12,656 nucleotides of DNA from positions 1 to 12,656 of the forward strand of contig JAYEMF010000039.1 of the NCBI GenBank assembly GCA_034717975.1, in the 5' to 3' direction. This stretch comes from Campylobacterota bacterium (GTDB lineage Bacteria > Campylobacterota > Campylobacteria > Campylobacterales > Sulfurimonadaceae). Positions within the stretch are counted from its first letter, which is position 1; every line of letters starts with the position of its first letter. The notes under the pieces were generated by a model that saw only the letters and a program-made list of their open reading frames with translations, was not told the DNA's origin and searched no databases. The translations under genes were made by a program, and so were the position numbers. Positions 3,108 to 11,900 of the stretch are shown here, one piece after another.

Positions 3108-3185
3108 TGATTAATTTTGAATTTTTAATTGTAAACGCTCCATCATTAAACATTGAAAATTTAAAATTTAAAATTATTCAAAATT
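3104..3185. repeat. AT-rich inverted heptamer repeat tract
   Basis: 7-nt periodic units aatgatt/aattttg/aattttt/aattgta, followed by roughly complementary units cattaaa/cattgaa/aatttaa/aatttaa. Confidence 0.55.
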
Positions 3186-3206
3186 GCTCCTTGGAGCAAT
3201 TTTGAA
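3177..3206 (+). promoter_or_regulatory. perfect inverted repeat covering the RBS and start codon of the phosphoesterase
   Basis: TTCAAAATTGCTCC-TT-GGAGCAATTTTGAA with 14-bp perfect arms; the right arm contains GGAG (3193-3196) and the TTG start (3202-3204). Confidence 0.6.
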
Positions 3207-3717
3207 AATCGGCATCCTCTCCGACACCCACACCAAAAGTGACCGTTCACAAAAAGTGATCGACCATCTGCTTGAGGAAGGTGCCGAGTTTTTTATCCAT
3301 GCCGGTGACATCGGAGAACCGGAACACCTTGAGCAGATTAAAGCAACCGGTAAAAAGTATGTTGCTGTTTATGGCAACAATGATGCTCACCTCCACACCT
3401 ATCATAACAAGTATAATCTTGTTCAAGAACCCGACTACTTCAAACTGGCCAACAGCAGGTTCAAACTGATGCACCTCCCCTTTTACATGAATGCCGATAC
3501 GGAAGTGGTCATCTTCGGTCATACCCACACCTTTGAGTGTGATTTTAAGAATGGGACACTTTTTTTAAATCCTGGTGAAACGTGTGCCCGTAAAAAACCC
3601 GTTTCAGAGTGTGCCATGCTCGAGGTGACAGATAAGTGGTTTTATGTCACCCATTATGCCCGCCCTGTCAAAAGTGACACCTTTGAAGCACATCACTATA
3701 ACTTTGAGAGGTCATAA
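3202..3717 (+). CDS. YfcE/MJ0936-family metallophosphoesterase
   Basis: Calcineurin-like motifs SDTH, HAGD, GNND, HLP, FGHTH, NPGE. Start moved to TTG 3202 (MKIGILSDTH) with GGAG 5 nt upstream. Confidence 0.92.
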   Translation: MKIGILSDTHTKSDRSQKVIDHLLEEGAEFFIHAGDIGEPEHLEQIKATGKKYVAVYGNNDAHLHTYHNKYNLVQEPDYFKLANSRFKLMHLPFYMNADTEVVIFGHTHTFECDFKNGTLFLNPGETCARKKPVSECAMLEVTDKWFYVTHYARPVKSDTFEAHHYNFERS

Positions 3718-3827
3718 CGATGTTCCAAAACTTATCTGCCCCTCATGGGGCTAGCTTTAGTGCCATAGCGGCCAGCGCAGACAAATGGGCTTTGCTCATT
3801 TGGCGTTCAAAAAGAATGAGATCATAA
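3718..3827. mobile_element. putative small structured insertion (MITE/REP-like)
   Basis: Hairpins GCCCC-TCAT-GGGGC (3738-3751) and CAAATGGGC-TTT-GCTCATTTG (3782-3802); flanked by near-direct repeats GAGGTCATAA (3708-3717) and GAGATCATAA (3818-3827). Confidence 0.5.
3720..3827 (+). CDS. possible 35-aa small ORF (MFQNLSAPHGASFSAIAASADKWALLIWRSKRMRS)
   Basis: ATG begins after a 2-nt gap behind the yfcE stop, with GAGAGG upstream (3706-3711); its TAA overlaps the bioB ATG (TAATG). No recognisable homology. Confidence 0.35.
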   Translation: MFQNLSAPHGASFSAIAASADKWALLIWRSKRMRS

Positions 3828-4678
3828 TGGCTGAAGAAATTTTCCTCTGTTCCATCTGCAATATCAACAGCGGGACCTGTAACGAAGACTGTAAATTCTG
3901 TTCACAGAGTGTCAAATACAGGGCTGATATCGATCGCTACATCCAAAAACCGATTACCGATATCATTAAAGAAGCCAAGGCCGTTGAAGCTGCCGGGGCC
4001 CTTGGGTTTTGTCTGGTAACAGCGCAAAAAGGGCTCGATAATAAAACGCTCGACTTTGTCTGCGAAGTGGCTCAGGCTCTTACCAAAGAAGTACCTAAGC
4101 TGCGTCTGATCGCCTGTAATGGTACGGCTACACTTGAGCAGTTGCTTACGCTCAAAGAAGCCGGTATCAAAGCCTACAACCACAACCTCGAAACATCACG
4201 CGAATTTTACCCTCAGGTCTGTAGCAGCCATAGCTGGGATGAGCGGTACGAGACCTGCGAAAACGTTAACAGATCCGGCCTGAAACTTATCACGGGCGGT
4301 ATTTTTGGTCTGGGTGAAAGCCGGGAAGATCGTATCTCCATGCTTCAATCACTCAGAACTCTCAACCCGGTATCGGTACCGATCAACTTCTACCATCACA
4401 ATCCGGTGCTGCCGTTAAATCCAAATCCGCTAACAGTAGACGAGGCCCTTGAACTGATCACTCTGACACGCAAAACACTTCCCAATGCGGAGCGGATCAT
4501 GGTCGCCGGCGGACGCGAGTTGATGTTTGGTAATCGCCAAAGTGAAATTTTTGCCGCCGGGGCCAACTCCATCGTAATTGGCAACTACCTGACCACCCAG
4601 GGACGAGATAAAAACAGCGATCTTCAGATGCTGGAAAAACTCGGACTTGAGATCGCCACCTCGGTGAAATCACAATAA
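3827..4678 (+). CDS. bioB: biotin synthase (radical SAM)
   Basis: CNEDCKFCSQS radical SAM motif, YNHNLETS, GGIFGLGES, SVPINF, AGGRE, GANSI..GNYLTT. Start at 3827 (MAEEIFLCS) matches the short Campylobacterota N-terminus. Confidence 0.96.
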   Translation: MAEEIFLCSICNINSGTCNEDCKFCSQSVKYRADIDRYIQKPITDIIKEAKAVEAAGALGFCLVTAQKGLDNKTLDFVCEVAQALTKEVPKLRLIACNGTATLEQLLTLKEAGIKAYNHNLETSREFYPQVCSSHSWDERYETCENVNRSGLKLITGGIFGLGESREDRISMLQSLRTLNPVSVPINFYHHNPVLPLNPNPLTVDEALELITLTRKTLPNAERIMVAGGRELMFGNRQSEIFAAGANSIVIGNYLTTQGRDKNSDLQMLEKLGLEIATSVKSQ

Positions 4679-4694
4679 ACGGTATACTTTCCCT

Positions 4695-5867
4695 ATGAAT
4701 GAAGTCGTCCTGATCATCACGCTCTCACTGGTTGTCATCTTTTCGCCCTATTTCGCGAAAGTTTTTAAAGTCCCAACCACGCCCGTCGAGATCATTTTTG
4801 GGGCCGTCCTGGGTGCTTTGGGCTTTCTTTATCATGACATCTATTTCGAGCTTGTCGCCGAAGTGGGTTTTTTATATCTTATGTTTATCGCCGGAACGGA
4901 GGTCAACCTCAAAAAGGTGTTAAAGACCGGTCCCGGCCTGATGAAACGAATTTTGCTTTACATTATTCTGCTCTACGGCTTTTCCATCGGATTTTCACTC
5001 TATTTCAACCTTGGAAAGATCTTTATGGTCCTGCTGCCGCTGCTCTCTGTCGGTCTCATTGCCACCCTTTCGAAAGAGTATGGAAAGACGGACTGGCTGA
5101 CACTCTCTATGACCGTCGGCGGTATCGGTGAAGTCGTCAGTATCGGGGTATTGACCCTTGCCTCGGCCGGTTTGAAGTTTGGGTTTGGACTGGAGCTGGT
5201 AATGACCATCGGTGCCCTTGTCCTGTTCATTCTCATCATCTTGCTTCTGTTTAAAATGCTCCAGCTGCTCTTTTGGTGGTTTCCGGAGGTTTCTACCGTA
5301 CTGATGCCGCATGAAGACAATAAAGAGCAGGATGTCCGTCTCTCCATGGGGATCTTGTTTATCCTTATCGGCGTGATGCTCTATCTGGATCTTGAACTCG
5401 CCTTTGGCGCATTTATTGCCGGGATATTTATCCCTACCTTTTTCGAACATAAACATGAGCTGCCCGAGAAACTTGCGAGCTACGGCTTTGGTTTTCTGGT
5501 TCCTATCTTTTTTGTCTATATCGGTTCCACCTTTCACCTGGAGGCCCTGGCCATTGAGGGTCTGATCACGAAAGCCCTTCTGATCACTTTCGTCATGGTA
5601 ATTATGCGTGTAATCAGTGCCGGTGTCTTTGTCAAAGAGCTCGGCCACCGAAATGCCATTTTGATGGGGCTTTCACATGGTATGCCGCTTACCCTTCTCA
5701 TCGCGATGGCAACCCTCGCCTATCATGCCAGCAGTATTGATAAACTCCACTACTATGCGTTTATCCTCGCCTCACTTTTTCAGGTGATCATCGTCACGAT
5801 TGCCATCCGATTGATAAAAGGGGAAGAGGGAAGAGGAAAGAGGAAAGAGGAGAAGGCTATACATTAA
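4695..5867 (+). CDS. cation:proton antiporter (CPA2 / Na_H_Exchanger family)
   Basis: 390 aa with many hydrophobic helices; motifs 'EIIFG', 'AEVGFLYLMFIAGTEV', 'AFGAFIAG', 'GFLVPIFFVYIG'. topA-bioB-transporter order is as I recall it from Campylobacter. Confidence 0.9.
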   Translation: MNEVVLIITLSLVVIFSPYFAKVFKVPTTPVEIIFGAVLGALGFLYHDIYFELVAEVGFLYLMFIAGTEVNLKKVLKTGPGLMKRILLYIILLYGFSIGFSLYFNLGKIFMVLLPLLSVGLIATLSKEYGKTDWLTLSMTVGGIGEVVSIGVLTLASAGLKFGFGLELVMTIGALVLFILIILLLFKMLQLLFWWFPEVSTVLMPHEDNKEQDVRLSMGILFILIGVMLYLDLELAFGAFIAGIFIPTFFEHKHELPEKLASYGFGFLVPIFFVYIGSTFHLEALAIEGLITKALLITFVMVIMRVISAGVFVKELGHRNAILMGLSHGMPLTLLIAMATLAYHASSIDKLHYYAFILASLFQVIIVTIAIRLIKGEEGRGKRKEEKAIH

Positions 5868-5941: not shown

Positions 5942-5967
5942 AGACCAACTCAAGCGAGGATTAGGTG

Positions 5968-6531
5968 ATGGCGCAATCTGAACTTCTCACACTTGCCCGT
6001 GAATCGATTCAGGAAGTCCTTCAGGCAGAACACACTATTGATCGTGAAGCCCTGCTTGAGAAGTACCCTGTTCTTGGTGAAGAGATAGCCACCTTTGTCA
6101 CGCTTACCATCAATGATGAACTGCGCGGCTGTATTGGTTCACTTGTAGCGCAGCGTCCGCTCATCGACGACATCATCCACAATGCCAAAGCCGCTGCTTT
6201 TCAGGACCCCCGCTTCTCACCGATCACTACTTCAGAGTATCTTCATACCACTGTCGAGATCTCTATTTTAACACCGCCAGAGTCTATTCAATATAGTGAT
6301 ATCGATGATCTCCGCTCAAAAATCCGGCCAAATATTGATGGCGTCATCCTCTCCCTCAATGGCCATCAAGCCACTTTCCTACCGCAGGTTTGGGAACAGT
6401 TGCCATCATTTGATGACTTCTTTGCTCATCTGGGCGATAAAGCCGGCTTAGGCTCCAATATGCTGCAGCAGCATCCCGATATCTTCGTCTATCAGGTCGA
6501 AAAAGCCAAAGACAAACCAATCATAAAATAG
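5968..6531 (+). CDS. amrA: AmmeMemoRadiSam system protein A (AMMECR1 domain)
   Basis: 'ATFVTL...LRGCIG', 'AAFQDPRF.P', 'EISILT', 'DG', 'ATFLPQVWEQL', 'KAG' are AMMECR1-family motifs. Confidence 0.92.
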   Translation: MAQSELLTLARESIQEVLQAEHTIDREALLEKYPVLGEEIATFVTLTINDELRGCIGSLVAQRPLIDDIIHNAKAAAFQDPRFSPITTSEYLHTTVEISILTPPESIQYSDIDDLRSKIRPNIDGVILSLNGHQATFLPQVWEQLPSFDDFFAHLGDKAGLGSNMLQQHPDIFVYQVEKAKDKPIIK

Positions 6532-6540
6532 GGGAACAGT

Positions 6541-7527
6541 ATGCAGTGGTATCAACACTACGCTAATGGTATTACTTGTTTACTTTGCGAACACTACTGC
6601 TTCTTGACACCTGGTCAGACAGGCCGCTGTTTTAACCAGCAAAACCAAAACGGTGAACTGGTCACCACGACATTCGGCACCCCCTCAGCCCTGAGTATCA
6701 CCCATATCGAAGATCGTCCCTTTTTACATCTTCTGCCAGGATCAACAGCTTTGGCACTGGGAACTACCGGCTGCAACATGCAGTGTCCCGGATGTCAGAA
6801 TCACCAGCTGACTCAGCATTTCGAGCATATCGAACCACTGGACCTGCAACCTGGAAATGTAGTGAAACTGGCACTGGAGAACAACACAGAGAGTGTCGCT
6901 TTTAGCTACAACGATCCGGTTGTTTTCTATCCTTACGCCAAAGCGATCGGCGAGATTGCCAACGACAAAGCGCTAAAAACACTTTTTCAGACTGCAGGAC
7001 TGGCTTCACCCATGCTGATCGATGATCTGACAGAGTGGGCCAGCGCCATACATGTCGATCTCAAATCTTTCAATCCCGCTTTCTACAAAAGTGTACTTGG
7101 CGGTTCGCTCTGTATCGTCAAGGAGAATCTGAGAACACTTGCGAAAAAAGCCAACTGGCTGGAGATCACTACCCTTGTCGTCAACGGTGTGAATGACTCC
7201 GATGAAGAGCTGCAGGCCATCGCCACCTTTATAGCCGAGGAGCTTGGCCCGCATACTCCCTGGCATATCTCGGCATTTACCCCGGCCAATCACCGCCTAA
7301 ATATGAAACCAACCACTACAAGCAGTCTGCTCAACGCCTATGAGATTGGGAAGAGAGCCGGTCTGCATTATGTCTATTTCGGGAATGTCCCGTGGCTCAA
7401 TGAAACACGCTGTCCCGGGTGCGATGCCCTGCTGATCCAGCGGCGGGAGTACGAAATCCTGGAGAACAACCTCGATAACGGGCAATGTCCGCACTGTCGA
7501 CGAGCTATAGAAGGTATCTGGTCATGA
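6541..7527 (+). CDS. amrS: AmmeMemoRadiSam system radical SAM enzyme (divergent)
   Basis: N-terminal CxxCxxxC...GxC, radical SAM GCNMQCPGCQN, 'DLKSF', 'WLEITTL', 'PWHISAF', 'AGLHYVYFGNV', C-terminal CPxC...CPxC; directly downstream of amrA. Confidence 0.85.
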   Translation: MQWYQHYANGITCLLCEHYCFLTPGQTGRCFNQQNQNGELVTTTFGTPSALSITHIEDRPFLHLLPGSTALALGTTGCNMQCPGCQNHQLTQHFEHIEPLDLQPGNVVKLALENNTESVAFSYNDPVVFYPYAKAIGEIANDKALKTLFQTAGLASPMLIDDLTEWASAIHVDLKSFNPAFYKSVLGGSLCIVKENLRTLAKKANWLEITTLVVNGVNDSDEELQAIATFIAEELGPHTPWHISAFTPANHRLNMKPTTTSSLLNAYEIGKRAGLHYVYFGNVPWLNETRCPGCDALLIQRREYEILENNLDNGQCPHCRRAIEGIWS

Positions 7528-8957: not shown

Positions 8958-11900
8958 ATGTCCGTAAGAGAACAGATTTTAGCCACCATCAAAGAGCGTC
9001 CGCTGATCATCGATGGGGCCATGGGCACCCAGCTTCAAGAGCGTGATGAGAAGATTTCTGAAGCGGCCTGGGAGGGCAATGAGGGGTGCAACGAACTGCT
9101 GAACGTTACCGCTCCGGAAGTGCTGGAAGATATCTTCAGTGCTTATCTCACAGCCGGTGCCGATCTGATCACGACCAACACCTTTGGTGCCTTTCCCTGG
9201 GTCCTGGATGAGTACCAGATCGGTGACCGCTCCTACGAGTTGGCCAAAGCCGGTGCCAGTGTTGTCCGCAAGATGTGTGACCGGTTCAGCACACCAGAAC
9301 AGCCACGCTATGTACTCGGTTCTATCGGTCCGGGAACAAAACTGCCATCACTTGGACATATGCATTATGATGAGATGCTGGAGGGGTATATCATCTGCGC
9401 CGAGGGGCTCATTGATGGCGGTGCCGATCTTTTCCTCCTCGAAACCTGTCAGGATCCCCTCCAGATCAAAGCGGCGCTGCATGCCTGTGAAGCGGCCAAC
9501 AGAAACCGGGGTACCGATATCCCTGTGATGATCTCGGTCACCATTGAACTGGCCGGTACGATGCTTATGGGTACCGATGCACAGACCATCGCCACCATCC
9601 TCGAGCCGTTTGAGATCCTCTCTCTTGGTTTTAACTGCGGAACGGGGCCGGAGCAGGTACTGAAACATGTTAAAACACTATCGGAAGTGTGGGGAAAACC
9701 GATCTCGGTGCATGCCAATGCCGGTCTGCCGCAGAACCGCGGCGGCTACAGCTACTACCCGATGGGACCCGATGAGTTTGCCGATCGGCAGGAAGCGTTT
9801 TTAGCCTTTGACGGTGTCTCTTTTCTTGGCGGCTGCTGCGGAACGACCCCGCAACATATCCGTGCCTTGACCGATCGTGTCAGCTCCATTACGCCAAAAC
9901 CGGCTTCAGGGTCTCAGCCGACCGCCTTGGCTTCGCTCTTCAACACTACACCGCTGGTCCAGGACCCTGCTCCGCTGCTTATCGGCGAGCGTTCCAATGC
10001 TACGGGTTCAAAAGCCTTTAGAGAGCTCCTTTTAGCCGAAGATTATGAGGGTACGCTCAGTGTCGCCCAGCAGCAAGTCCGTGCCGGTGCCCATGCCATT
10101 GACCTCTCTGTCGGCTTTGCCGGCCGGGACGAGACCAAAGATATGAATGAAGTGGCATCACTGTACGCCCAAAAGATCCCGCTTCCGCTTATGGTCGACT
10201 CAACACAGACTACAGGGATCGAAACAGCACTTAAACTCATCGGCGGCAAGCCCATCATCAACTCGGTCAACCTTGAGGATGGGATAGAGAAGTTTGACGC
10301 TGTCTGTCAGCTTGCCAAAAAGTATGGGGCCTCACTTGTCTGTCTGACTATTGACGAAGTAGGAATGGCAAAAACGGCGGAACGCAAACTGGAAGTGGCG
10401 GAACGCATCTATCAGCTTGCCACCGAAAAGCATGGCCTGAACCCGGAAGACCTGGTCTTTGACCTTTTGACCTTTACCGTAGGTTCTGGTGATGAAGAGT
10501 ATCGCGATGCGGCTATTCAGACCATCGATGCCATTCGTGAACTCACTGCGCGTCATCCAGAAGTAGGTACTACTCTGGGGCTCTCCAACATCTCTTTTGG
10601 TCTAGACAAAGATGCCAGACCCTACCTCAACACCATCTTTTTAAACCACTGTATCGATGCCGGTCTCAGTACCGTTATCATCAATGTCAAACATATCATT
10701 CCTCTCAATAAAATATCAGAAGAAGATGAAGAGACGTGTAACAACCTTCTCTTTGACAGGAAACCAAACGGTGAAGCTCTTTTTGAGTTCATCGACTACT
10801 TTGACAAGAATGCCAAAACGAGCGGTGATGAAGTCGATGAAGCCTATCTGACGATGAGCGATGAAGAGAAGATTGCCAAACTGTTGATGGATGGCGATAA
10901 AGAGCGTATGATCCCGCTTGTTGAAGAGGCGCGCCACCACATCAAACCCGAAGTGATCGTCAATGAGATACTGATCGATGCCATGAAGGTGGTCGGCGAG
11001 CTCTTTGGTGCCGGTGAGATGCAGCTGCCGTTTGTTCTGCAAAGTGCCGAGACCATGAAGAAGACGGTTGATCACCTCAACCCTTATCTGCCAAAGATAG
11101 ACAAAGAGGTCGACACTACTTTGATACTGGGTACGGTCAAAGGCGATGTTCACGACGTCGGTAAAAACCTTGTCGACATCATCCTCTCCAATAATGGCTA
11201 TAAGGTAATCAATCTTGGTATTAAAGTACCCCTGGAGGAGTATATCGAGACCCTCAAAAACTCAACTGCCCATGCCATAGGGATGAGTGGTCTGCTGGTC
11301 AAGTCTACACAGGTGATGAAAGAGAATCTCGAAGCGATGAAGGAAGCAGGTATCACCACGCCTGTCCTGCTTGGCGGGGCGGCGCTTACACGCTCTTTTA
11401 TCGATGACTTCTGTCGTCCTTTTTATGACGGACCCATCTTCTACTGTAAAGATGCCTTTGACGGGGTGACGGCCATGAGCCGTATCGAAGCGGGCAATCT
11501 TGACACCGACCTGCATGGTGAAGAGAAGAGAGGGAAAGAGGGAAGAGGAAAGGGGAAAGAGGAGGTAGTGATCCCGCCTTTTGAAGAGCTTGAGATGCCT
11601 GATCGCAATGTCACTACACCGACACCGCCATTTTGGGGACGCCGGACTATTACACTCTCCGAGTCCCAGATGGAGATGGCCTTTGAGTGGATCAACCACC
11701 GTATGCTTTTCAGACAGCGCTGGGGCTATAACGGCAAAGGGATGAAAAAAGAGGAGATGCAGAAGCAGGTCGATGAAGTGCTGTGGCCGGCCTTCGATCG
11801 TTTAAAGGCGCAGTTCCTCGATGAGAAGCTCTTCGATCCAACCATCATCTACGGCTACTGGCCGGTGCGATCAGATGACACGACTTTGCTTGTTTTTGAT

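Follow-up and report, generated by a model that had tools for sequence, protein, structure and literature searches.

The yfcE-bioB junction

The window analyzed here, a 12,656-nt stretch of contig JAYEMF010000039.1 from a Campylobacterota genome (GCA_034717975.1), carries a yfcE phosphodiesterase gene (positions 3202 to 3717, + strand) upstream of the biotin synthase gene bioB (3827 to 4678, +). Both genes exceed the NCBIfam cutoffs (TIGR00040 for yfcE; TIGR00433 and PRK08508 for bioB). The longest yfcE open reading frame (ORF) begins at 3184, and the codon model favors 3202. Between the yfcE stop, which ends at 3717, and the bioB ATG (3827 to 3829) lies an insert flanked by two versions of the gene junction: the left unit, GAGGTCATAA at 3708 to 3717, and the right unit, GAGATCATAA at 3818 to 3827, both on the + strand, identical at 9 of 10 positions and spaced 110 bp apart. 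Read in the yfcE frame, their sole mismatch is silent (AGG/AGA), and either unit encodes R-S-stop. The left unit is the present end of yfcE with its stop, and the right unit is a relic yfcE end overlapping the bioB ATG. Direct reading of the sequence confirms that removal of one unit would leave yfcE and bioB overlapping as TAATG. Identity of at least 9 of 10 positions in the stop/start register was rare by chance, with 3 cases among 2162 cross-paired junctions and 2 among 441 element-free gaps.

An ORF of 35 codons (3720 to 3827, +) begins 2 nt past the yfcE stop and terminates on the A of the bioB ATG. The initial annotation had described this ORF, two hairpins, and the junction repeat with its identity and spacing, and all of these were found as claimed. 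The peptide encoded by the bridging ORF is unconserved and had no match in Pfam or NCBIfam, and its codon use is not gene-like (score of −0.66 per codon, versus +0.08 at the 1st percentile of genes). Likewise, the insert had no Rfam match at an E value of ≤1.

The insert is composed of several modules, all read on the + strand. A variable 5′ spacer (3718 to 3737) includes a segment (3719 to 3729) that is predicted in the minimum free energy fold to pair with 3703 to 3713 across the duplication start; it is a candidate antisense segment, whose pairing in this copy does not exceed chance in cross controls. The spacer is followed by hairpin A of the type I module (3738 to 3751; predicted stem of 5 bp, supported by the fold and the type I alignment) and by a linker (3752 to 3774) that is conserved in the alignment of 33 type I copies. 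The family core (3775 to 3806) consists of a GYAG tag, a covarying stem, a G.T-containing apical stem with a 3-nt loop, and a closing CGT, with a predicted 9-bp stem-loop at 3782 to 3802. An A-rich tail of 11 nt (3807 to 3817) completes the insert; family copies end 9 to 16 nt past the core. The fold of the whole insert region is modest (z score of −1.96). In four DNA sequencing runs from one study, two of which possibly represent the source, no read joint bypassed the insert, and a single contig runs through it; the sequencing runs listed as containing the insert included no RNA run.

A dispersed family of hairpin elements

BLASTN and nhmmer searches of the 2.5-Mb source genome returned 89 matches to the insert, and a structure scan found 77 cores, compared with 0 to 3 in shuffled sequences. 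After two of nine extra structural matches were dropped as chance and one match was dropped because it had no core, the merged family count was 95 copies, none of which has its core inside a predicted gene. The insert is thus a multicopy, mobile-type element, as the initial annotation had proposed. Between codirectional genes, 31 copies lie in sense and 33 in antisense orientation; a further 24 lie between divergent or convergent genes, and 7 are at contig ends. Behind a common core (GYAG tag, variable stem, G.T-containing apical stem, and CGT), the upstream modules fall into 34 type I (the kind found in the window), 37 type II, 13 type III, and 11 other copies. Among 69 distinct cores, six variable stem pairs were kept in 60 to 68 cores versus 33 to 48 expected, and G.T combinations far outnumbered A.C combinations (101 versus 12). 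The structure of one strand has therefore been under selection. Extra hairpin modules nested in the core apical loop were seen at three loci of G000 (C44:17256-17354, C108:8990-9118, and C50:14946-15010).

The strict core pattern occurred in 13 of 41 genomes, including 11 of 24 family relatives and neither of the two same-genus genomes. Listed matches came from Sulfurovum, Sulfurimonas, Sulfuricurvum, Sulfurospirillum, and other Campylobacterota, and all but one of the titled matches among those listed were from Campylobacterota. Rfam searches of 12 further family loci yielded just one tRNA and two subthreshold matches over that tRNA. Several family copies sit between tRNA genes, some of them similar or duplicated (G000 C111:33904-34596 and C34:10577-10639, L237, L265, and L299). 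Plasmid and phage collections contained no match to the element, and viral contigs gave one family match, a copy located between head genes (L423:3001-3032).

Filled and empty sites in related genomes

Comparison with relatives bore out the expectation that yfcE and bioB directly abut or overlap where the element is absent. Among 29 bioB loci, yfcE was located upstream in 26; none of these has an insert, and the intergenic distance ranges from −11 to +38 nt. A further 15 plus 10 genomes provided 22 empty yfcE-bioB junctions and 3 filled ones (G146, G156, and G127, the last with a truncated copy); no bridging ORF accompanies the family insert in any of the three. In total, 48 of 51 junctions in relatives were empty and 3 were filled, and several of the empty ones show the TAATG overlap. 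The insert in the window entered a formerly overlapping yfcE-bioB junction. In the unbridged copies at this junction, purine-rich Shine-Dalgarno (SD)-like words were noted by eye before bioB. A bare family core lies directly 3′ of the bioB stop in G022 (L011:1455-1495), a site that is empty in the window.

More broadly, 45 of 380 flanks of foreign copies corresponded to sites also used in the source genome, against a baseline of 3.6%. Where synteny could be followed for foreign copies (86 junctions), the source genome was filled at 18 and empty at 45.

Target duplication

Duplication of the target was evaluated in the source genome and at foreign loci, in a set of 393 copies reduced to 309 by removing tandem, short-flank, and near-duplicate copies. 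Flanking direct repeats were present in 39 of the 309 copies versus 2.1 expected, and exact matches of at least 10 nt starting +9 to +16 behind the core numbered 28 versus 1.0 expected. A match resembling that in the window (at least 9 of 10 positions) was found in 54 of 309 copies, compared with 3.0% in controls. The 10-nt duplication in the window starts at +11 behind the core, within the family rule. The proposed target duplication is thus a property of the family, although 270 of the 309 copies have no strong duplication, and about 8 of the 39 direct repeats are tandem repeats of tRNAs or modules, which form another class.

The 3′ end of the family lies at a fixed distance (9 to 16 nt) past the core hairpin, independent of the tail sequence, which varies among copies. 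The duplicated target stretch is itself variable, ranging from 10 to about 110 nt, and its duplication leaves the upstream gene with its stop and the downstream gene with its start. Microhomology at the 3′ join was not enriched (42 of 154 matches, versus 49 by permutation; P = 0.94). In 22 clear cases, most mismatches between the duplicate copies lay in the half distal to the duplication start (52, versus 17 in the proximal half). At thiC, the duplicates match perfectly over 51 nt, after which 12 differences, 10 of them at third codon positions, occur up to the stop; same-genus genomes differ at thiC by 4 and 6 bases in the first 50 nt. This mismatch pattern, set against the same-genus genomes, therefore indicates that two coding alleles met at thiC. 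Neither copy is closer to the same-genus genomes (5 versus 6 and 6 versus 5 diagnostic bases).

Antisense spacers and the thiC cassettes

A related thiC cassette occurs in five genera (G000, G019, G053, G057, and G669). The strict thiC pattern matched 4 of 353 family genomes, G057 was recovered by a separate search, and an order-wide pattern matched only G000 among 401 genomes. Despite their differing terminal hairpins, the five cassettes share a single nucleotide as the start of the duplication. Across the duplication start, the target is matched in reverse complement by the spacer that follows the stop, and in four of the five cassettes this spacer outperforms every cross control. The G669 cassette, which was found after the prediction had been made, pairs through two G.T wobbles.

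In 22 copies with long duplications, spacers scored 6.67 against their own target versus 5.52 against others (P = 1.5 × 10−5), and the own target ranked first in 7 of the 22, while about half ranked poorly. The pairing peaks at offset 0 and spans positions −7 to +3 of the duplication start, bases that exist on the target side only; shifted windows gave no signal. The 266 copies without long duplications showed little spacer signal (66 versus 53 expected), and prediction of their duplication start from the antisense partner was likewise weak. The target-antisense 5′ spacer of long-duplication copies and the one-nucleotide duplication start of the thiC cassettes in five genera are new here.

These patterns raise the possibility, which we regard as tentative, of self-guided insertion, in which the 5′ spacer, in the form of RNA or single-stranded DNA, would base pair with target sequence spanning the duplication start and so serve as a short antisense guide, and the hairpins would be either a scaffold for some enzyme or catalytic themselves. 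In favor of such a guide are the own-target pairing in the long-duplication copies, its centering on bases present only at the target, and the identical thiC start behind differing terminal hairpins. However, a single origin for the five thiC cassettes is possible, and an inverted copy of the target would equally be expected from a scar left by fold-back during insertion. The weak signal in the 266 other copies and the poor ranking of about half of the 22 also argue against it, as does the window copy, whose spacer pairs at −6.4 kcal/mol compared with a cross median of −7.0 kcal/mol and hence not above chance. If guided insertion does occur, the family might represent an undescribed class of roughly 100-nt, protein-free, self-targeting cassettes, each with a 10- to 12-nt 5′ antisense guide and a covarying scaffold that sets the 3′ end 9 to 16 nt past the core; each cassette would integrate at one nucleotide with a replacement gene end, differing guides would direct the cassettes to dozens of loci per genome, and relay ORFs would be selected later to keep operons coupled. 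We consider this class doubtful: a self-guided, protein-free cassette is unproven, and its support lies at the level of the family, the window copy itself having no above-chance match.

Searches for a mobilizing enzyme

None of the six Y1 transposase matches shared a contig with a family copy, and two Y1 loci had unrelated terminal repeats. Likewise, none of 13 Y1 loci from four genomes carried the core, and searches of G011 (one contig with 10 strict copies) and G019 revealed no Y1 gene. At two loci (L032 and L034), Y1 transposase genes have terminal repeats that fit the GGGGWSAS TIRtron motif as given in the available text of PMC3733652. Reverse transcriptases were not found in the four genomes searched (G000, G007, G011, and G020), and TnpB was present in one of five genomes. 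IS110 (PF02371) matches were detected in three of five genomes (G000, G001, and G007), including one without strict core matches, and none in G011 or G020; no core was found near the PF02371 matches. Small GIY-YIG genes were not accompanied by a core, with the exception of one copy about 600 bp away in G000. One such gene (L345, in G020) lies amid many CGTC-type repeats unrelated to the hairpin family. Clustering of 319 neighboring proteins disclosed no recognizable recurring mobile-element protein. A mobilizing enzyme was thus not found among the five families searched (Y1, reverse transcriptase, TnpB, IS110, and GIY-YIG); one may exist outside these.

Comparison with known repeat elements

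Mycobacterial interspersed repetitive units (MIRUs) are said to have been described by Supply et al. in 1997. According to the available portions of later accounts, MIRUs are 40 to 100 bp long and present in 40 to 50 copies (PMC3184786, PMC12548453), have 4-nt direct repeats and imperfect terminal inverted repeats (PMC3184786), and use start codons as insertion sites, their ORF being coupled at −4 (PMC12548453). Like MIRUs so described, the present family is a dispersed small repeat with filled and empty operon sites and a duplicated target, and its bridging ORFs, by coupling to the start of the next gene, would make insertion less polar. In contrast to the 4-nt direct repeats given for MIRUs, its duplications take in gene ends and measure 10 to about 110 nt; it has no terminal inverted repeats, and both orientations are equally common. 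Furthermore, 12 to 22% of its junctions are bridged, in varying frames, whereas the MIRU ORF is described as element borne and coupled at −4, and some family copies carry a target-antisense spacer. The family is thus a dispersed repeat with filled and empty sites, without the tetranucleotide repeat and without a coupled element ORF as a rule. It works like a MIRU but fails the features that define MIRUs and hence is not classed as one.

GTAG REPs are characterized, in the part of the source available, by a GTAG tag 5′ of an imperfect hairpin, an extragenic location, and occurrence as dimers and arrays (PMC3733652). The family resembles GTAG REPs, BIMEs, and REPINs, as portrayed there, in its GYAG tag 5′ of an imperfect, G.T-tolerant hairpin and in its extragenic, multicopy singles, dimers, and arrays. 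The published Sulfurovum GTAG REP examples and CGTC-2 peptides differ, a comparison made with examples rather than consensus figures in the available text (PMC3733652, PMC4690160). Unlike GTAG REPs and REPINs as far as these accounts describe them, the family has no flanked RAYT, is larger and modular, and has hypervariable but covarying stems, a fixed-distance 3′ end, and long target duplications. We know of no same-site insertion across five genera for REPs.

Integrative elements of the attP type bring in a new 3′ end for a gene or tRNA and displace the resident one, which persists as a relic. The family would share with these elements the supplied gene end and the displaced relic, and its thiC cassettes use the same nucleotide in different genomes; unlike attP-type elements, the family is about 100 bp long, has no integrase, and occupies dozens of different loci in each genome, gene 5′ ends among them. 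A further parallel, as far as the available text of PMC11208160 and PMC11208158 goes, is with IS110 bridge-RNA elements, which likewise have a noncoding segment that is complementary to their own target and varies between copies. In contrast to those elements as described, the family encodes no recombinase, two element-rich genomes have no IS110 match, and there is a single short candidate target-pairing segment. Its own-target complementarity is significant in the 22 long-duplication copies and four of the five thiC cassettes and not in the window copy. MITE features (terminal inverted repeats with a fixed-length duplication) are absent, as the ends are asymmetric and modular and the duplication length is variable. 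A literature search that covered few subscription papers retrieved no paper on this family or mechanism.

Bridging ORFs and translational coupling

The initial annotation had proposed that the element carries its own read-through peptide, which is not supported by the other copies. Of the 34 type I copies, 17 leave the frame used in the window open, 9 have an upstream start for it, and just 2 allow it to run through to a downstream start; hence, the expectation that other copies keep the ORF open holds for half of the type I copies, and the expectation that they keep it coupled does not. Moreover, sense and antisense copies are about equally common, and bridging peptides occur in differing frames and on both strands. 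This therefore points to selection on the openness of the frame and not on the peptide.

Bridging was quantified at 126 codirectional junctions (43 from the source genome and 83 foreign) against a null model in which both linkers were shifted by 0 to 2 nt. Junctions longer than 300 nt, containing N, or without clear gene ends were excluded, and gene starts were taken from our own gene caller or from homology. Tightly coupled bridges were present at 15 of 126 junctions versus 3.4 to 3.6 expected, or at 11 of 102 versus 2.8 to 2.9 when repeated loci were collapsed, and wide bridges numbered 28 versus 12.3 expected. Element-free control gaps showed no such excess (6 of 360 bridged versus 4.2 expected; P = 0.23). 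A chimera null applied to the source genome alone gave an approximately twofold excess (wide, 9 of 47 versus 4.5; tight, 5 versus 2.1). The view that the insert keeps operons coupled is accordingly upheld insofar as bridging ORFs exceed chance but does not describe most insertions, as 111 of the 126 junctions have no tight bridge.

At the window junction, the left unit provides GAGG (3708 to 3711), an SD-like site 8 nt 5′ of the ATG of the 35-codon ORF. Its duplex is strong (−7.0 kcal/mol, the 10th percentile of 500 sampled genes) and that of bioB is weak (−2.7 kcal/mol), compared with a gene median of −3.9 kcal/mol, all energies being calculated with an anti-SD motif that we assumed because the true 16S tail was not found in the assembly. 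An in-frame ATG at 3785 was considered as the bioB start and rejected, as it lies within the stem and has a weak SD. Pairing of 3703 to 3713 with 3719 to 3729, if formed as modeled, would hide the SD and start of the bridging ORF until the ribosome translating yfcE opens the fold.

Origin and role of the insert

Insertion and junction duplication at yfcE-bioB are real. From sequence evidence, we consider it probable that the insert is a mobile hairpin cassette, noncoding and nonautonomous, of a family spread through free-living Campylobacterota, and that its 35-codon ORF acts as a MIRU-like ribosome relay, for which openness would matter and the peptide would not. The initial interpretation of the locus is thus partly supported. 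Such a cassette would travel between lineages with a copy of a gene end and replace the resident end in an attP-like manner, with the old end left as a relic. Host recombination on transformed DNA would be a first guess for the homology side of this process. The relay reading of the ORF is favored because, where a downstream gene such as bioB has a weak ribosome-binding site, selection would keep variants whose open frame connects the stop of the upstream gene with the relic stop located at the start of the downstream gene. The relay ORF in the window is probably functional on these grounds. Self-guided insertion would extend this explanation and does not exclude it.

The chief alternative accepts the insertion and duplication and holds that the 35-codon frame is accidental, a stop-poor frame of the repeat that happens to meet the relic stop and has no role in bioB expression. 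Half of the type I copies are open in this frame whatever their context, the codon score is nongenic, three other genomes tolerate an unbridged family copy at the same junction, and chance alone would account for about 3.5 of the 15 tight bridges. Against this stand the fourfold family-wide enrichment with a flat control set and the strong SD of the bridging ORF next to the weak one of bioB, and we judge an accidental frame to be unlikely, if far from negligible. Less likely still is an ordinary REP/BIME family moved by a RAYT (Y1) transposase, its duplications being recombination join points. The GTAG/GCAG tag 5′ of an imperfect hairpin, the extragenic location, and the dimers and tandem arrays agree with GTAG REPs as presented in the accessible part of PMC3733652, but the Y1 genes found do not keep company with family copies, none turned up in G011 or G019, and the published Sulfurovum REP examples and peptides that could be compared are different. 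Site identity across five genera is also not known for REPs. Finally, the ORF and hairpins directly upstream of bioB could suggest a leader-peptide or attenuator regulator, which the initial annotation had offered as an alternative. This is very improbable: 95 dispersed copies lie beside unrelated genes, 48 of 51 relatives have no element at the junction, and the other 3 have family copies and no bridging ORF. A conserved leader ORF with a terminator, as expected for an attenuator, is absent, and no + strand terminator-like site was found.

With insertions at more than 100 operon junctions, frame-preserving relays at approximately four times the chance level, and a flat control set, the relay reading would make the family a quantitative natural test of translational coupling. 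It also raises a tractable question: by what route can such tiny hairpin repeats spread when no dedicated transposase serves them? Were the antisense spacer a real guide, the family would constitute a minimal system for programmable insertion, separate from the IS110 bridge RNAs, and the five-genus thiC site would offer a defined, testable target.

Other features of the window

Two further repeat families are present in the window. Purine-only repeats at 5819 to 5852 and 11517 to 11571 (+) are read in frame at the end of a cation:proton antiporter gene and inside metH, respectively, and thus form a second, gene-entering family; with the low-complexity filter off, they gave 55 and 76 BLAST matches in the genome, and a pyrimidine mirror follows the antiporter stop. 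The third family is an AT-rich repeat between topA and yfcE (3108 to 3206), with 24 genome BLAST matches and followed by a 13-pair inverted repeat. On the − strand, two small adjacent ORFs at 6 to 600 have below-cutoff Pfam matches to a BrnT toxin (E value of 9 × 10−7) and a CopG-type antitoxin (E value of 1 × 10−4) and are likely a type II toxin-antitoxin pair. Genes for an AmmeMemoRadiSam system protein A and a radical SAM protein follow the antiporter gene (5965 to 7527, +).
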